The position numbers and the translations under genes were made by a program. Source: Nitrosopumilus sp. (GTDB lineage Archaea; Thermoproteota; Nitrososphaeria; Nitrososphaerales; Nitrosopumilaceae). Taken from it: 64,000 bases of DNA. A model generated the notes under the pieces. The model had not been told where the DNA came from. It saw only the letters and a list, made by a program, of their open reading frames with translations, and made no database searches. Positions 14,248 to 25,965 of the stretch are shown piece by piece. Each line of letters starts with the position of its first letter. The first letter of the stretch is position 1. The stretch is from positions 768,001 to 832,000 of the forward strand of contig OZ245003.1 of assembly GCA_965223425.1 (NCBI GenBank), written 5' to 3'.

Positions 14248-14312
14248 TCTATATAGTTGACCATACTATATGTTTGCTAACTGTAAATAAATTTCAAAAT
14301 AACGTATCCCTA

Positions 14313-15857
14313 ATGAGAACAAAAATAACATCACTGCTGATGATTGCAACCTTGGTTGCTATCGCACCGCCATTAAACGCAAATGCTGAATCAATGCCCG
14401 AAACACCTCAAGCAAATTTAGACTATAACCTAGTTGGAGCTGGTGCAACGTTTCCATTCCCATTAATTGATTTGTGGAGAGTTGAATACAACAAAATTTA
14501 CGACAACGTAAATCTGAACTACCAATCAATTGGAAGTGGCGGTGGAATTAAGCAACACATTGAAAGAACCGTAAATTTTGCAGCCTCAGATAAACCAATG
14601 AGTGAAGCCGAAATAGAGCTAGCTTCTGGAACACTACACATTCCTGAATCAGTTGGAGGTGTAGTTTTAGTGTACAACGTTCCTGAAGTTCCAAACAAGG
14701 GTCTTAAGCTAACTGCTGATGTCGTAGCTGGAATCTTTTTGGGAGATATTACAAAATGGAACGATCCTGCCATAGTTGCAGAAAACCCAAGATTGAACCT
14801 GCCTGACAAAGACATAGTTACTGCACACAGATCAGACGGCTCTGGAACCACTTTCATATTCACAGATTATCTATCTGTAGTCAGCCCTACGTGGGATGAA
14901 CAGATAGGTAAAGGAAAATCTATTCCATGGCCTTCTGGTCTTGCTGCTGCAGGAAATGAAGGTGTTGCCGGCATCGTAAAGTCTACTGAATATGCAATTG
15001 GATACATTGAACTTGCTTATGCATTCCAAACAGGAATGAGTTATGCATATATTCAAAACGCTGAAAAATCTGCATTCATTGAACCATCATTGGACAGCAT
15101 TTCTGCTGCATCTAGTGGTGTTGCTGACACTTTACCTGCAGCTGAAGACAGCTGGGTTGGAGTGTCACTAGTCAATGCACCAGGTTCTGATTCCTACCCA
15201 ATTGCTAGTTTCACATACCTACTTGTGTATGATGATCTAAAACCGGTAACAAAAAGCAAAGAACAAGCAAAAGCCATAATCCATCTAATTAATTGGATGA
15301 TTACTGATGGTCAGGAATTCTCACCAAGTTTGCTATATGTCCCACTTGCCGATAAGGTAACAAAACTTGGACAAGCAGGATTAAAACAAGTAACATATGG
15401 CGGTGAAGTTCTTTGGGGTGCAAAAGCATCTGCAGATTCAGGAAATATGCCAGAGATGACACAGCAAACTGTAAATGAAGAAAACGGAGGTTGCCTAATT
15501 GCAACTGCAACATATGGTTCTGAAATGGCGCCACAAGTTCAGTTGTTAAGAGAAATTCGTGATAACCAGCTAATGAATACCGCATTTGGCATGTCATTTA
15601 TGGCCGGATTCAATCAGTTGTACTATTCATTCTCGCCACACATTGCTGACATGGAAAGAGAAAGTCCAGCGTTCAAGGAAATGGTAAAGATCGGAATAAC
15701 CCCGTTGCTATCATCCTTGTCCATCATGGAATATGCCGAGTCAGACTCTGAAGTGCTAGGATATGGCATCGGTGCAATTCTGATGAATCTTGGAATGTAC
15801 TTTGCAGCACCGGCTATGTTGTTTTACAGAATAGCAAAGAGAATAAGGCATTCTTGA
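14313..15857 (+). CDS. pstS: Phosphate-binding protein PstS with CFI-box-CTERM anchor
   Basis: GAGATFP, YQSIGSGGG, HRSDGSGTT; C-terminal GGCLIATATYGSEMAPQVQLLRE. Confidence 0.95.
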   Translation: MRTKITSLLMIATLVAIAPPLNANAESMPETPQANLDYNLVGAGATFPFPLIDLWRVEYNKIYDNVNLNYQSIGSGGGIKQHIERTVNFAASDKPMSEAEIELASGTLHIPESVGGVVLVYNVPEVPNKGLKLTADVVAGIFLGDITKWNDPAIVAENPRLNLPDKDIVTAHRSDGSGTTFIFTDYLSVVSPTWDEQIGKGKSIPWPSGLAAAGNEGVAGIVKSTEYAIGYIELAYAFQTGMSYAYIQNAEKSAFIEPSLDSISAASSGVADTLPAAEDSWVGVSLVNAPGSDSYPIASFTYLLVYDDLKPVTKSKEQAKAIIHLINWMITDGQEFSPSLLYVPLADKVTKLGQAGLKQVTYGGEVLWGAKASADSGNMPEMTQQTVNEENGGCLIATATYGSEMAPQVQLLREIRDNQLMNTAFGMSFMAGFNQLYYSFSPHIADMERESPAFKEMVKIGITPLLSSLSIMEYAESDSEVLGYGIGAILMNLGMYFAAPAMLFYRIAKRIRHS

Positions 15858-15886: not shown

Positions 15887-17134
15887 TCAACTAGTGGTTC
15901 TGATCAAATCTCGGTTCTGTGAAGTTATCGGGAGTTGACCCCTATAACTCGACTTTGACATATCGACTATTCGGACTACCAATGGTGTGCTGGGTTCCGT
16001 CATCGCCGGCTCAAAAGTGCCGGACTGCGCTTCACATATGTCATCTCTACTACCCCTAAACCTGGGGGGCAGCTTGCGTGATATGTTGTTCATGGCAGCG
16101 ACAATATCCCTGTCCATAAACAAACCGCAATTATTACACGACAGTTTACGATGTTGTTGTTGCATGTCCTCTTGGAGTCTCTTTCCGCATTGCGGACACT
16201 GCGTGCTCGTGTTTCTTGGGTCTACTGTCTCGACTGGAGGTAGCCCGACCCATTGGGCTTTGTATTCTATTTGGCGTTGCAGCTCGTAGAATTGCCACCC
16301 GTTCAATCTGCGCCTGTACTTGTTGCCTTGACTGTTTCCTTTTCGGTACAATTTTCTTATTCCTTTCAGGTTTTCCATGACGATTGCAGTCTTGTTTTTG
16401 ACTGCGTTGTCTACTATATCCTTTGAGATTCTGTGGATGTACTGCCTTGCTCTGTCAGTCAGTCTTCTCTGTCTTTCCTTGTAGAACTGATTTTTCTTCC
16501 TGCGGTCATTTCTGTGGAAGCCTGCCCTGGCGTGTATTGTGTTCTCCTTTATGGATAACAGCTTGTTTGTCTTGTAGACTGTCACCCCTTCCTCGTTCCC
16601 ACACGTCACATTTCTTAGGTTTCTGTCTATTCCGACTTTCTTGGTGCACTCTATCTCTTGTACTTTTTTTGAAACACAAAGACTGATGTTGAGGGCAGTC
16701 AGTGAAAACGAGCGCACCGTCAGGGCGGGATCAGACAGGATTTTTTGGGTGTGATCGTTGAGTAAAATGTTGATTGGGTTATGTTTCTTGTATGGGATTG
16801 TTAGTAGTGCACCGTTGTGTTTTATGCCGTAACAGTTTGTCATAAAGGGATTTTTGACTATTGGATCTCTTATTCTGACACCTCGTTTGACTGATTGTTT
16901 TCTGTTTGATAATATGCCTGCAGCTTTTGATATTGCACATATCTTGTATGTTGATAAAATGTCATAGTTACGCAATTCGTGATAACATAACATGGACAGC
17001 CTCTTCATATTGTGAGTGTCTTCTTTCAACCCTATCTTGATGCAATGATTGGCCATCTTTGTGAATGTAGCCGCCATATCCATTAGGTCAGAGTTCGGCG
17101 CATATTTCTGTGATATTGGCTTTATCGCCTTCAG
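15887..17134 (-). CDS. tnpB: TnpB RNA-guided nuclease (start uncertain: CTG 17134 or ATG 17083)
   Basis: RuvC VGIDRNL / IVMENL / DRDIVAAMN, zinc finger CPQC..CNNC. The ORF runs through the TIR and stops in the flank. Confidence 0.92.
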   Translation of the reverse strand: MKAIKPISQKYAPNSDLMDMAATFTKMANHCIKIGLKEDTHNMKRLSMLCYHELRNYDILSTYKICAISKAAGILSNRKQSVKRGVRIRDPIVKNPFMTNCYGIKHNGALLTIPYKKHNPINILLNDHTQKILSDPALTVRSFSLTALNISLCVSKKVQEIECTKKVGIDRNLRNVTCGNEEGVTVYKTNKLLSIKENTIHARAGFHRNDRRKKNQFYKERQRRLTDRARQYIHRISKDIVDNAVKNKTAIVMENLKGIRKLYRKGNSQGNKYRRRLNGWQFYELQRQIEYKAQWVGLPPVETVDPRNTSTQCPQCGKRLQEDMQQQHRKLSCNNCGLFMDRDIVAAMNNISRKLPPRFRGSRDDICEAQSGTFEPAMTEPSTPLVVRIVDMSKSSYRGQLPITSQNRDLIRTTS

Positions 17135-17251
17135 CGAATATCTTGCGGTTTGGAGGCTTATACATTTTGGGAATTGACATATAACCCCCGATAACTTCAC
17201 AGACGTTATACGAAATCTTTTCTGTATCCTGTGATGTATCGTTACTGTTGG

Positions 17252-17370
17252 GCCTGAGAGTTGAATGGTTACTGTCATGTACAAGGGCGTTTCACAGACT
17301 AACTCAAAGTGAGCGGAAAACAAAATACCACACAGATGATGGTGAATGGGAGCATTCCGCAGAATCAGGC
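17252..17370 (+). ncRNA. Candidate IS110 bridge RNA core
   Basis: Outer stem GCCTGA/TCAGGC encloses two internal loops, one with TTCACAG (target flank plus core) and one with ATGGGAG (donor end plus core). Confidence 0.72.
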
Positions 17371-17396
17371 AATTTGATCAGAAAGGAGGTGATAAT

Positions 17397-18471
17397 ATGA
17401 TCAGCATAGGAATTGACGTTCACAAAAACAGGTGCGTTGCAACAGTAAAAAAAGATACCAGAAAAAAGCTGGAACAGTCAAGCTTTGAGAACACCACACG
17501 TGGAATAACGGGTTTTATCAGACACGTCAAAAAGACATACGGCAAAGACATGCAAGCAGTGTGCGAATCAACTGCCAACTACTGGATTAGACTGCATGAC
17601 ACACTGGAGGATAACGGCATTGATACTGTTCTTGCACACCCTGCAAAGACCAAGATAATAGCACAGGCAAAACTCAAAAACGACAAGCTCGATTCAGACG
17701 TATTGGCAGACCTGCTAAGATCTGACATGGTGTACGAGTCATTTGTACCAGAAAAATACTATCGGGACCTGCGCAGTCTGGTAAGAACAAGACTGAATCG
17801 CGTACACAGTGTCTCAAAACACAAAAACATGATTTATGCAATACTTGCAAAATACGACTACACCCAACCGACAATAAAGACATTCTCACAGAAAGGAATC
17901 AGATGGCTGCATGAAATCAGTCTGACAGAAGTTGACAGGATGGCAATGGACGCATATCTTGAAAACATTGAGATGAATCAAAAACAGATTGACACATTTG
18001 AGACAAAGATTGCCGCAATTAGCAACGAGGATGAAAGGGCAAGACTAGTCATGACAATGCCTGGAATAAGCTATGTCACGGCACTGACAATAATATCCGA
18101 GATAGTTGACATTAACAGATTTGCAACAGCAGAGAAACTCGTCTCATATGCGGGACTTGCACCATCGCACAGGGACAGCGGAGAGACGCAAAAAGGAGGC
18201 GGCGGAATAACAAAACGTGGTTCTGCATGGCTGCGCAATGCAGGTGGAGGCTGCAAACACCACGATACGATTTGATCCAAGGATGGAATCATTTTATTCA
18301 AGAATCGCAAAGAGAAGAAGAAAACAAAAGGCAAGAATAGCAGCTGCAAGGCAGATGATGCTTGAGATAATCTGGCACATGCTAACAAACATGGAGGAAT
18401 ACCGCACACAGAATCACGAGTTGACGCAAAGAAAGTATAAGAAGATGCAAGACAAATCAGAAACATCCTGA
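17397..18471 (+). pseudogene. IS110 recombinase, frameshift near 18243
   Basis: IGIDVHK, AVCESTANYW, KNDKLDS, GLAPSHRDSG; strong SD AGGAGGTG; C-terminus (VEAA..RIAAARQM) in another frame. Confidence 0.9.
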
Positions 18472-18611
18472 TTCAGCAAAGCACACTGAGAATGGCCCGC
18501 AGTAGGATAAGGGACGATTTCGTATGGGAGAACCCAAATCTCTATAGAACTATATTCTTCGCATAAAATATGATGATATCCTAGATAACTCCATTTTTAC
18601 GTTCAACAAAT

Positions 18612-19589
18612 GTGGGACATGTAAAGTTCAAACAAAAAAAGCCGAAAAGACGTTCAATTTCTGATAAAATCTTCAAAGTTGGCGCAACTGTAGCAGGCGT
18701 TTACGTTTTAGTGATGATTGTATTGTTAGCCTTTCAATTACTCTCTGAATCATATCCTGTTTGGGAAGAAGAAGGCTTGGGATTCATCTCCGGTACTGAC
18801 TGGAATGCAGTGGAAGGACGTGAGTCTTTTGGTGCTTTGCCTTATATTTTGGGAACGCTAGTTACTGCGGCTCTGGCAATGGTGATAGGCGTTCCGCTAA
18901 GTCTTGGCATTGCAATGTTTATCTCAGATGCTCCTGCAAAGATTGGCGGCCCGTTAGGATTTCTAGTTGAACTTTTAGCTGCGGTTCCAAGCGTAATTTA
19001 TGGACTTTGGGGTCTTTTTGTTTTTAGAATTTATTTTAAGGATTGGATTGAGGTTCCACTTCACAACGCGTTTGGTGATTCTATTTGGTTGTTTTCTGGC
19101 ACTCCTTTTGGTTTAGACATTATCACCGCAAGTGTCATTTTAGCTATAATGATCATTCCGACAGTTTCAGCAGTATCTCGTGAAATAATGAAGGCAGTTC
19201 CTCAACAACAAAAAGAAGCTGCATACATGTTGGGTGCAACAAAGTGGGAGATGTTCAAACTCGCGGTATTTCCATATTCTAAAACCGGTTTGATTGGTGC
19301 GTCAATTCTTGGATTGGGCAGAGCTGTTGGCGAAACTATGGCCGTAACAATGTTGATTGGAAATGCTACGGGTCTTTCAGCAATTCCATCCTCCTTATTC
19401 AAACCAAGTCAAACCATGTCTAGTATTATTGCAAATGAGTTTGTTGAAGCATCTCCTGCATCGTTACATCTTCCTGCATTGATTGCTGTTGCGTTGGTCT
19501 TGCTACTCATTGCAATTGCAATCAATGTTGTAGCTCACATTTTAGTAACTAGAATGCTCAAGGTAAAGGAGGGTGCTATTAACAATTGA
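18612..19589 (+). CDS. pstC: Phosphate ABC permease PstC
   Basis: ELLAAVPSVIYGLWG, GRAVGETMAV. Confidence 0.95.
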   Translation: MGHVKFKQKKPKRRSISDKIFKVGATVAGVYVLVMIVLLAFQLLSESYPVWEEEGLGFISGTDWNAVEGRESFGALPYILGTLVTAALAMVIGVPLSLGIAMFISDAPAKIGGPLGFLVELLAAVPSVIYGLWGLFVFRIYFKDWIEVPLHNAFGDSIWLFSGTPFGLDIITASVILAIMIIPTVSAVSREIMKAVPQQQKEAAYMLGATKWEMFKLAVFPYSKTGLIGASILGLGRAVGETMAVTMLIGNATGLSAIPSSLFKPSQTMSSIIANEFVEASPASLHLPALIAVALVLLLIAIAINVVAHILVTRMLKVKEGAINN

Positions 19590-20518
19590 CCACTACGCCA
19601 GAAAAACGCCGTGAATACCGTGCCTTATTCAAACAAAATGTCGAGAGACGACTTGTTGTTGACAAAGTTGTTCGAATCATAGTTTTCGCATGTGTGATAA
19701 TTGCAATTGTTCCCTTGGGCAGCATTCTTGTTGAAGTTTTCAAAAACGGTATAACTGCAATCAGTTATGAATTTCTAACTGAAACTCCTGGTTCTATTGG
19801 TTCTGGTGAAGGTGGGATTGGACCTGCAATTCAAGGCACTTTGATAATAATTGGACTTTCCAGCCTGATTGGAGTCCCGATAGGTGTTATGTCTGGAATC
19901 TTTCTATCTGAATACGGCGACAACAAACTTGCAAGATCAATTCGTTTCTTCAATGACGTATTCATGGAATTCCCGTCAATTGTTCTTGGAATATTCGCAT
20001 TCTTAGTAATTGTGTTGATTCTTGGACATTTCTCAGTGTGGGCTGGTGCTTTTGCATTGTCATTAATCATGTTCCCTATCGTTGCTAGAACTACCGAAGA
20101 ATCCCTCAAAATGGTTCCTGTAACTTATCGTGAGGCTGGAACTGCTTTGGGCCTCAAAAAATGGGTGATTACTTTTAGAATTGTAATCTCAGCTGCCAAA
20201 AATGGAATGATCACTGGAATTTTACTTTCTGTATCTAGAATAGGTGGCGAAACTGCACCTTTAATCATGACTATCCTGGGCAGCAGTCAATTCTTTAGCA
20301 GTATGGATGTGCCCATGGATGCTCTTCCTTTGAGAATTTGGAGACTTTCTCTGTTGCCATATGATAGTGCACAACTTCAAGGATGGGGAGCTGCACTGGT
20401 TCTGATCTTTATCATTCTGGGAATTAACCTCGCAGTTAGATACTTCTTTGCAAACAAGAAGGGAAAGAATGGACTATTCGGACAATTAATTAAGAAAGGA
20501 GTTAAAAATAGAAATTGA
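19586..20518 (+). CDS. pstA: Phosphate ABC permease PstA
   Basis: [18 protein letters not shown]. Confidence 0.95.
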
Positions 20519-21345
20519 TAGCGTTGAGTGCCAAACCATCTAACATGAACACGCAAGTAATATCTGATCCTCCTCCGACTGGTTCTGAAAAATACAAAAT
20601 GATTGCAGAAAATGTTACTGTCAGTTATGATGGAATTGAGGCAGTCAAAAATGTAACAATGAAGTTCAAGGAAAAATCAGTCACTGCTTTAATCGGGCCT
20701 TCTGGTTGTGGAAAAACCACTTTCCTTAGATGTCTTAACAGAATGCATGATATGACGAAAAACGCAAGAGTTGATGGGAAAGTTATGATTGATGAGATTG
20801 ATCTTTATGACAAGTCAATTGATCCGATTTATCACAGAAGAAAAGTTGGTATGGTTTTTCAAAAACCAAATCCATTCCCAACGATGTCCATTCATGATAA
20901 TGTCACCGCAGGTTTGAAACTAAACGGAGTTAGGGATAAAAAAATTCTCAATGAAATTGTTGAAGATTCGCTAAAGATGGCATATCTTTGGGATGAAGTA
21001 AAACACGATTTGAAAAAATCAGCAATTGAATTGTCTGGTGGCCAACAGCAGCGTCTCTGTATTGCAAGAGCATTGGCAATTCAGCCTGAAGTTTTACTTA
21101 TGGATGAACCTGCATCTGCACTTGATCCAATTGCAACTCAGAAAATTGAAGAAACAATTACAGAGTTGAAAAAAGAATATACAATAATTATCGTAACTCA
21201 TAACATGCAACAAGCGGTCCGTGTCTCCGATTATACCGGATTTATGTACCTGGGTGATTTAATTGAATTCAGAGAAACAACGAAAATTTTTACAGATCCT
21301 AAAAATGAGTTAACTGCAAAATATGTTCAGGGCCAGTTCGGATAA
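20515..21345 (+). CDS. pstB: Phosphate ABC ATPase PstB
   Basis: [29 protein letters not shown]. Confidence 0.96.
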
Positions 21346-24865: not shown

Positions 24866-25068
24866 GTCTACAGGTTCTACATAGATTTACCTGATCTAAC
24901 AGCTAAGCGAAATGTAAACAGAATATTCATTTTGTTTTGTTGTTAAACACAATTTGAGTCACATTCCATTGTTCTATTCCTATTTTTTGTCCAATTTTTA
25001 GTACATTTCGCTTAGCGGTTCTGTGAAGTTATAGGCACCTGAAAATATGAATTTTCTCTGAATTGAAA

Positions 25069-25965
25069 TCATGCATGCTGATTCAATGAGGCGTTTTGTA
25101 TGATGGTTTTCCACTTGTTAGAACCATCCACTAGTATTCCTGCCATCTCTGCTGGAGTCTTCTTTTCAATACCGCCATGCTTTTTTGAGAAATTATAGAA
25201 TGTCTGGAATCCGTCAAACAACTGGGCTTCTTTAAACATTGGTCTTACATTTTCAGTACCTTTGGTATCTGCTACAAACTGGGTAATCATGAATCTGGTC
25301 TCATGGTCAAGCATGGAGTATTGTAGTTTCATATTGCCCTTAATTTTCATAAAGATTTCATCAGTACGCCAAGTTTCTGATACTCTTGGAACTATGCCTT
25401 TGACATAATCTGCTACCGTTTTAGAGTATTTTTCAATCCAGCCATAGACTGCTCTGTATGATACCTTGATTTCCTCCTGCTCAAAACAGTCTGCAATATC
25501 TCTAACTGACATTCCTGAAAAATACATCTGTAATGCTCTGGTGATCACGGTATTACTGTAACGCATTTTTTCAAATCCAAAATTTGCTGTAAATCCCCTT
25601 TTACAGTCATTGCACTTGAATTTTTGAAGACTGCCTGATTTGTTTTTCTTGATTCCTTTTTTGATAATATTACCTGAATCACAGAACTTGCACACCTTGA
25701 CTAGTGATCCCTCAATTATGCGGAATGTCTGTTCTTGCCCCTCATTGTTTCTGATTAGCTCCAAAACTGTCTTGATGTGCTTGCAGTCTGATTTTCTTTT
25801 GGTGTGATCCGGGCAATCACAAATTAATCCATTGCTTGTCTTTGAGACAATATAATGAATCTGTGGTATGCTTTGAGATCTTACGCTAAATCTTTCTGGA
25901 CTGAACTGCACTGCGCAGTTTGGTAACTCCATCATTTGTGTTGCTCTTTGGGTTCGTGTATTCAT
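25069..25965 (-). pseudogene. IS6-like transposase (SWIM + Zn ribbon + HTH + DDE) with internal deletion
   Basis: CDCPD..CKH, CKFC..CNDC, WRTDE. Jumps from MFKEAQ to LFDGFQTFYNF, losing the 2nd D and E region. End GGTTCTGTGAAGTTAT at 25017. Confidence 0.8.

Follow-up and report, generated by a model that had tools for sequence, protein, structure and literature searches.

A Candidate Bridge-RNA-Guided IS110-Family Insertion Sequence Aimed at the Tips of Putative IS6-Type Repeats in a Nitrosopumilus Genome

What decides where an insertion sequence (IS) lands, and can the inserted DNA itself carry the answer? This question is raised by an IS110-family element in a stretch of 64,000 nt from the archaeon Nitrosopumilus sp. 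(OZ245003.1; G000:C1:768001-832000, from here on the window), which lies within the terminal inverted repeat (TIR) of another mobile element carrying a tnpB gene. An earlier reading of this DNA, referred to here as the original prediction, had proposed an RNA-guided element programmed for the GGTTCTGTGAA tip of that repeat, and the proposal is now backed by insertion sites shared among copies, by compensatory changes in the stems of the predicted RNA and by covariation of its guides. The element most likely is, or recently was, a bridge-RNA-guided IS aimed at the tips of IS6-type repeats. That this IS of a Nitrosopumilaceae archaeon, with its IS110-family (DEDD plus serine) recombinase, would have its insertion site chosen by a bridge (seek) RNA which it encodes itself is given a probability of about 0.88. 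To our knowledge, bridge and seek RNAs have so far been characterised in bacterial elements only; with this element, an archaeal case joins a mechanism that was known from bacteria, and the mechanism itself is left unchanged. No description of the element or of its target was found in the literature searched, and the supplements of PMC11187229 and PMC11208160 may list archaeal members or members with an upstream RNA.

Insertion Site and Ends of the Element

The element covers positions 17201 to 18530 of the window on the plus strand and measures 1,330 bp if the dinucleotide AG is included at both ends; these limits were set by comparing two full copies, nine fragments and intact target sites. 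Sequence reading and site comparison show AG once in the intact target and at both junctions of the inserted element. Insertion is site-specific and occurs without target duplication, and the core dinucleotide is common to both junctions, as in other elements of the IS110 family. The left flank (17187-17200) ends in ...CCCGATAACTTCAC, and the junctions read ...GATAACTTCAC / AG ACGTT... at the left and ...TATGGG AG / AACC at the right. Inside the left junction, the terminal extension AGACGTT of 7 nt (the AG core plus 5 nt; 17201-17207, plus strand) is followed by the 10-bp subterminal inverted repeat ATACGAAATC (17208-17217, plus strand), which in homologues, too, emerged as an inverted repeat of 10 bp. 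Its counterpart GATTTCGTAT (18516-18525, plus strand), likewise read from the sequence and from homologues, is followed on the same strand by the 3-nt extension GGG (18526-18528), by AG (18529-18530) and by the flank AACC (18531-18534). The recombinase gene is preceded by 196 nt and followed by 59 nt of non-coding DNA. The TIR split at TTCAC-AG-AACC and the 10-bp subterminal repeats had already been pointed out in the original prediction, and on re-reading of the sequence these and all of its other coordinates for stems, loops and motifs proved to be correct.

A BLAST search of the element against the genome returned 11 pieces, which are the window copy, a second full copy and nine fragments. 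The second full copy (G000:C1:2061324-2062653) is 99.25% identical to the first, with 10 differences in 1,330 bases. Four of the five left junctions follow GATAA(C/G)TT(C/G)AC, the fifth belonging to a relic of 77% identity, while the right junctions are followed by AACC in seven of nine cases and by AAT in the other two; the comparison of flanks among copies, which had been suggested as a check of the proposal, returned the same site at most junctions on either side. Three loci in other genomes (L039, L049 and L053) are also inserted in this motif. Since the flanks past the repeat differ among the copies, they represent separate insertions and not a segmental duplication. The target sequence of the element is TTCACAGAACCC, and 48 unoccupied TT(C/G)ACAGAACC sites (31 exact ones and 17 of the TTGAC variant) were counted genome-wide, compared with about 1.3 expected from composition for one 11-mer. 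Two free sites within the window, which had been predicted, are intact: one copy of TTCACAGAACC lies on the minus strand at the opposite, unoccupied end of the interrupted tnpB element (15913-15923) and a second one, again on the minus strand, at a repeat beside a truncated IS6-like gene (25017-25027). Both were found by a site search, and within the window alone this number is not above chance (2 sites versus 1.46 expected with at most one mismatch; 43 of 100 shuffles gave at least two). The contigs of four sequencing runs contained no joint corresponding to an empty site and no circle junction, although contigs are unable to reveal a circle; many loose contig ends at 17203 are free copies of the repeat.

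Leader RNA, Guides and Recombinase

The core of the putative bridge/seek RNA is encoded at 17250-17370 on the plus strand, within the leader of the recombinase gene, and was delimited by covariation and a covariance model. An outer stem, in which GCCUGA (17252-17257) pairs with UCAGGC (17365-17370), encloses two loops that would bind target and donor, respectively. GAGUU (17258-17262) and AACUC (17301-17305) close loop 1, whereas GCGGAA (17313-17318) and UUCCGC (17355-17360) close loop 2, all read from the plus strand. This architecture, with target guides in loop 1 and donor guides in loop 2, is that of the original prediction; its coordinates were confirmed and its stems covary. Five helices with a total of 24 pairs were written from the earlier description and scored on 15 homologues, whose upstream regions align well. 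In this alignment, 96.1% of the cells of the proposed pairs are paired, compared with 28-44% if the 3' partners are slid by one to three columns, and 9 of the 24 pairs are altered on both sides, a number that was met by only 1 of 500 shuffles. The minimum-free-energy fold includes the proposed stems, and the alignment varies precisely where the loop strands lie. A covariance model (R1) built on the 117-position RNA core matches G000:C1:785250-785369 (window 17250-17369) with 132 bits and finds the RNA in 21 of the 151 Nitrosopumilaceae genomes that were searched, among them that of the window itself; no match was obtained in the 9 other genomes of the same genus, and the distribution of the RNA is therefore patchy. 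Copies that bear the RNA number roughly 85.

The two strands of loop 1 correspond to the two flanks of the insertion. The 5' guide UGGUUACU (17266-17273, plus strand) is complementary to AG-AACC, and the 3' guide UUCAC + AG + AC (17291-17299, plus strand) has the same sense as the left flank and core, TTCAC-AG, followed by two nucleotides that equal bases 3-4 of the element. The guides GGTT and TTCACAG named in the original prediction are present at their coordinates, and they change together with the flanks in homologues, an analysis which had also been called for. The five bases that precede the core in the 3' strand of loop 1 were compared with the locus's own left flank in 31 distinct loci; the mean match was 4.42 of 5, with 19 perfect loci, compared with a mean of 1.70 in 918 cross-comparisons between different guides. 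If each of the 25 guide classes is represented once, the agreement amounts to 108 of 125 positions, a value that none of 100,000 flank permutations reached. One locus, which is the single contribution of the unpublished genome G077 to the RNA, left-flank and donor-guide counts, does not affect the conclusions; if it is left out, 103 of 120 positions agree and again none of 100,000 permutations is as high. The two bases after the core equal element bases 3-4 in 23 of the 31 loci, and the extension classes AC, AU and CC track the element tips AGAC, AGAT and AGCC. In IS621, the handshake guide occupies the same position as this 2-nt extension (PMC11208158).

On the other side of the core, contiguous matches to the right flank occur in homologues whose guides are different. 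The 5' strand of loop 1 is the exact reverse complement of core and right flank over 8 nt in L046 (6 nt of flank and the core) and over 7 nt in each of L044, L050 and L041 (5 nt of flank and the core); the match is also contiguous and perfect in L106, as read from the alignment and the located right ends, and L042 and L122 have one mismatch each. C follows AACC at six of seven occupied sites, but among the 48 free sites at only 16 (binomial P = 0.007). This preference fits the G with which the GGGUU guide of the window's subfamily starts and suggests that the guide may read one base past the repeat.

Loop 2 was predicted to read the donor, the ends of the element itself. Its 3' guide AUGGG + AG, followed by CA (17346-17354, plus strand), is nearly invariant across the alignments, and AUGGGAG (17346-17352) is, as had been noticed before, identical to the right end plus core of the element (18524-18530). 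The second donor guide had been described as weak. It is indeed weak in the window copy, in which AACA (17319-17322, plus strand) is complementary to three of the four element bases 4-7 (CGTT), yet in homologues a 4-nt strand at this fixed position covaries with the left tip: 38 of 44 positions agree over 11 classes, and 0 of 100,000 permutations were as high.

Taken as a mechanism, the RNA would be produced from the 196-nt leader and would fold into the outer stem with its two internal loops. Loop 1 would read the target, and the AC after its 3' guide, by matching element bases 3-4, could act in a handshake-like manner; in loop 2, the 3' strand AUGGG-AG would recognise the right end and the 4-nt 5' guide the left-end bases 4-7. 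Recombination of a circle junction TATGGG-AG-ACGTTAT with the target TTCAC-AG-AACC would then yield an insertion without duplication. We infer production of the RNA, its binding by the recombinase, the chemistry and the circular intermediate.

The recombinase is encoded in two parts. The first one (17397-18275, plus strand) comprises 292 amino acids with an out-of-frame tail after ...WLRNA and was identified with Pfam (PF01548, PF02371) and NCBIfam (NF033542). Within 17397-18272, PF01548 (DEDD_Tnp_IS110) scores 84.9 bits and PF02371 (Transposase_20) 75.6 bits, and NF033542 reaches 200.4 bits against a cut-off of 140. The C-terminal part (18243-18471, plus strand) is in the +1 frame, AT being absent after 18242 by comparison with in-frame homologues. 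The catalytic residues D, E, D, D and S, as listed for IS621 in PMC11208158, are present: GID, CES, DKLDSD and DSG align with the IS621 chain 8wt6_A. The solved relatives are IS621 and ISCro4, of which the IS621 transposase is the best match (E = 1.1e-13). Close relatives of the protein are found in Nitrosopumilus or Nitrosopumilaceae contigs, and plasmid proteins match with 22-37% identity but are annotated only as 'IS110 family'. The clade offers compact recombinases of mesophilic archaea, and with no fewer than 24 natural guide classes within a single family of genomes it forms a comparative data set for the rules of guide length, register and handshake bases.

The Target Repeat and the Choice of Site

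The interrupted repeat belongs to a tnpB-only element with putative IS6-type terminal repeats (15913-17200, minus strand), which measures 1,292 bp if the split tip at 18531-18534 is added. By comparison with the intact repeat GGTTCTGTGAAGTTATCGGG at 15913, the inner 14 nt of the split repeat lie at 17187-17200 and its outer 4 nt at 18531-18534 (both on the minus strand, where the latter read GGTT), next to an 8-bp duplication. This target duplication, CAAATCTC, flanks the tnpB element at 15905-15912 and 18535-18542, and matching 8-bp flanks are present in five other copies of the tnpB element. The tnpB frame (15887-17191) matches the Cas12f1-like TNB domain of Pfam and guided_TnpB of NCBIfam (120.7 bits), and it extends through the repeat at its 3' end. 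A dozen or so tnpB-only elements of about 1,291 bp with 8-bp duplications occur in the genome (e.g., G000:C1 134372-135662, 1259858-1261148 and 1984056-1985346). TnpB seems to ride in a non-autonomous transposon of the DDE type and not in one of the IS200/IS605 or IS607 type. A looser scan of the genome recovered 65 repeat ends, 62 of them intact, which belong to tnpB elements of about 1.29 kb, to miniature elements of 85-140 bp and to others.

The start GGTTCTGT is one that we take to be typical of IS6 repeats. The repeat at 25017 is adjoined by the truncated gene of an IS6-like transposase, which occupies 25069-25965 on the minus strand. Among NCBIfam models it is matched best by NF033587 (E = 1.1e-19; 70.9 bits, below the cut-off of 125), and in Pfam it has a weak match to DDE_Tnp_IS240. 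The IS6 transposase model has 12 matches in the genome, and the best two span the whole model (123.2 and 113 bits versus the cut-off of 125). No complete autonomous IS6-like copy with both repeats was delimited, nor was the IS6-like gene in L088 found to be flanked by a pair of inverted repeats. These data point to a target that consists of the outermost 11 bp of an IS6-type repeat common to tnpB carriers, miniature elements and IS6-like copies. The original prediction had seen the target as the end of a tnpB element; it is the tip of that element's repeat, but as the repeat is common to an IS6-like family and its non-autonomous derivatives, the target is not a feature of the tnpB element as such. 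The locus is nevertheless a case of layered mobile elements, in which a putatively RNA-guided recombinase element sits in the end repeat of IS6-type elements that carry the gene of an RNA-guided nuclease.

Why should such a tip be chosen? Only 4 bp of the repeat are left at the old tip, and the interrupted end should therefore stop serving its transposase, which would immobilise the tnpB element. Where a complete tnpB element had been hit, the insertion was always at the same end of it (n = 2). This consequence and this polarity would suit an element that acts against its host transposon. The tip may equally be a safe harbour, that is, a conserved, multi-copy and harmless site comparable to REP for other IS110-family elements, in which case damage to tnpB or IS6-type elements would be incidental and no selected weapon. 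Free tips are abundant, 48 of them facing 4 left and 9 right junctions of the window's subfamily; no fewer than 24 further guide classes, for unrelated sequences, are present in sister subfamilies; and in L039, L049 and L053 the same motif was hit with neither a tnpB gene nor a partner repeat nearby. A harmless site sits less well with the observation that the outer 4 bp of the repeat are now 1.3 kb away from the rest, which should disable that end. Since free tips are numerous and sister subfamilies have unrelated targets, a safe harbour explains the choice of site as well as antagonism does, and we lean slightly towards it.

A comparable preference is reportedly shown by IS4321 and IS5075, IS1111-type elements whose target, as Partridge and Hall are said to have described in 2003, lies in the terminal repeats of Tn21-family transposons. 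The element described here resembles them in having its target inside the TIR of another transposon; it differs from them in that this target is an archaeal IS6-type repeat tip whose carriers hold tnpB and not a Tn3-type transposase.

Some loci depart from a simple correspondence between a copy and its site. The flanks of the second full copy, of L049 and of L142/L154 fit the guide of another copy better than their own (e.g., a TTGAC flank with the own guide UUCAC), which hints either at RNA that acts in trans or at tolerance of a mismatch at position -3. In L041 and L128, a full copy directly follows the initial ~110 nt of another one, which break off precisely after that copy's own 3' guide of loop 1 and its AG; it seems that guide DNA has served as a half-target here (self-targeting), or that a nested insertion was later trimmed. 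An unrelated multi-copy repeat with GTATGGCAGAATCCGC (22 sites, e.g., 106683, 126914 and 330363) resembles the right junction by chance.

Relationship to Known Systems and Points of Doubt

Judged by its ends and the order of its guides, the element is of the IS1111 type, and its putative RNA gene lies upstream of the recombinase gene. According to Siddiquee et al. (PMC11187229), reversed guide order separates the seekRNAs of the IS1111 family from those of the IS110 family, and IS1111 elements possess subterminal repeats with extensions of 7 bp at the left and 3 bp at the right; the repeats usually measure 11-13 bp, with a range of 7-17 bp (PMC11208160, PMC11187229). In the element, the subterminal repeat is perfect over 10 bp, the extensions are 7 nt and 3 nt long if AG is counted once, at the left, and the guide complementary to AG-AACC precedes the one identical to TTCAC-AG. 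As in IS1111/seekRNA elements such as ISEc11, a DEDD recombinase is combined with these extensions, the target is not duplicated on insertion, the top-strand complement is the first of the two guides, and relatives have been reprogrammed naturally (PMC11187229). The long non-coding region, which lies downstream of the recombinase gene in almost all IS1111 members, is absent from this position. It is located upstream in 'a few' of them, e.g., ISMtsp17 (PMC11187229), an IS1111-type element that the present one resembles in this respect, as compared by description only. Many IS1111 members also have multi-loop donor sites (Durrant et al., PMC11208160). Unlike most IS1111 elements, the element has an upstream RNA gene, a simple fold with two internal loops, a 10-bp repeat and an archaeal host. 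Its grouping is one by ends and guide order, and it joins traits that are used to separate the IS1111 and IS110 groups.

The original prediction had filed the RNA under the IS621 type, i.e., the IS110 group, and some features would fit. IS621-type elements carry the RNA gene in a long left end (PMC11208160), and a long left end is present here; as in IS621, a leader RNA has a target loop followed by a donor loop, each of which reads both strands around a 2-nt core, two handshake-like nucleotides behind the 3' guide match the partner DNA and all five catalytic residues (D, E, D, D and S) are kept (PMC11208160, PMC11208158). The best solved structure is that of the IS621 transposase as well. The filing does not hold in other respects: in contrast to IS621, the guide order within each loop is reversed, the core in gene orientation is AG and not CT, and the subterminal repeats measure 10 bp compared with 2-3 bp in IS621-type elements (PMC11208160, PMC11208158); in IS621, moreover, the left donor is read in the right end (PMC11208160, PMC11208158). 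Together with the 7- and 3-nt extensions and the leading top-strand complement, these are features of IS1111, and an IS621-type element is considered unlikely. The description of the RNA as a mirror image of that of IS621 was dropped as a claim of novelty, as the reversed order is the known difference between IS1111 and IS110 (PMC11187229).

One contig contains, near its end, an arrangement of a different kind (L063/L094). Here, GGTT-CT-CCC, the reverse complement of right tip plus flank, is joined at the subterminal repeat to a normal leader, so that a flipped tip lies ~60-75 nt upstream of the RNA, as expected from an inversion of the interior between the 10-bp repeats, and an IS621-like polarity results. 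Among 43 more RNA matches, which were read by eye, no further flipped isomer was found. Such a flip, if true, gives a CT core and places the guide matching the left flank first. It would be a bold and rather improbable extension to see in the clade a living intermediate between IS1111 and IS110, in which one-step interior flips across the 10-bp repeats to IS621 polarity were the route of divergence and frameshifted copies moved in trans; if so, such copies would have multiplied in two genomes through the RNA and protein of other copies.

Guidance by the leader RNA, the reading preferred here, has to be weighed against several observations that speak against it. The fold energy of the RNA is no better than that of shuffled sequences (z = 0.20; 111 of 200 shuffles were as stable), and structural support therefore rests on covariation; in a search of the window with Rfam, only a tRNA reached the gathering score, and the permissive matches at 17150-17450 were all far below threshold. 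None of the sequencing runs that a search listed is recorded as RNA, and the relatives compared are not independent samples. Left flanks fit poorly in L118 and L121 (2 of 5) and in L097 and L059 (3 of 5), right flanks in L059, L100 and L103. In the window's subfamily, the 5' guide GGGUU-A-CU (UGGUU-A-CU in the window copy) fits AG-AACCC only if the A is left unpaired. This is needed in all five loci of the subfamily that have both flanks, the ungapped match being 2-4 of 6; flipped-out guide bases have been reported for IS621 (PMC11208158). The 5' donor guide of the window copy pairs, as described above, at three of four positions only. For the more diverged loci, a search for the longest inverted repeat failed to find most ends, a repeat-guided search recovered some right ends, and left ends were set by eye at the conserved tip motif, a procedure that is independent of the guide and was not automated.

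The state of the recombinase gene is a further point of this kind. The frameshift in the window copy had been predicted, and the frame does break near 18242; both full copies are frameshifted alike, lacking two bases (AT) after 18242, which leaves the last ~75 residues out of frame. Among 18 rows compared at this position, 13 are in frame, the two full copies of this genome lack 2 nt and three rows from one other genome lack 1 nt. L046 and L049 are examples of homologues with an in-frame recombinase. No full-length in-frame copy of the window's subfamily was found in the genome, whose in-frame pieces are 5'-truncated fragments only; the AT form at 18242 is present in contigs from three sequencing runs. 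As the two full copies carry one shared 2-nt frameshift, they are probably unable to move on their own now. The spot of the frameshift, GCAATGG, is the same in two genomes (window 18242; L039, L053 and L054), and the broken form occurs at several sites in each. Since the frameshifted form is found at two different sites, it either moved in trans or the change arose twice.

That the site is chosen by the protein, or that the loop matches are mere relics of captured flanking DNA with no guide RNA acting, would agree with the unremarkable fold energy and with an RNA predicted from sequence, but is very improbable: across 25 classes a change of guide goes along with a change of flank, compensatory changes preserve the stems, the donor guides vary in step with the tips of the element, and the mechanism of the family was shown experimentally in bacteria (PMC11208160, PMC11208158, PMC11187229).

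The neighbourhood of the locus and the wider genome yielded some minor observations. The tnpB element and the IS lie between a gene which is presumably pstS-like (14274-15857) and others that we take to be pstC-, pstA- and pstB-like (18612-21345). PF01548 has 26 matches in G000:C1, which include at least three other IS110-family groups, some with long leaders of their own. Inside several copies of these other groups, an insert of ~1.13 kb recurs.

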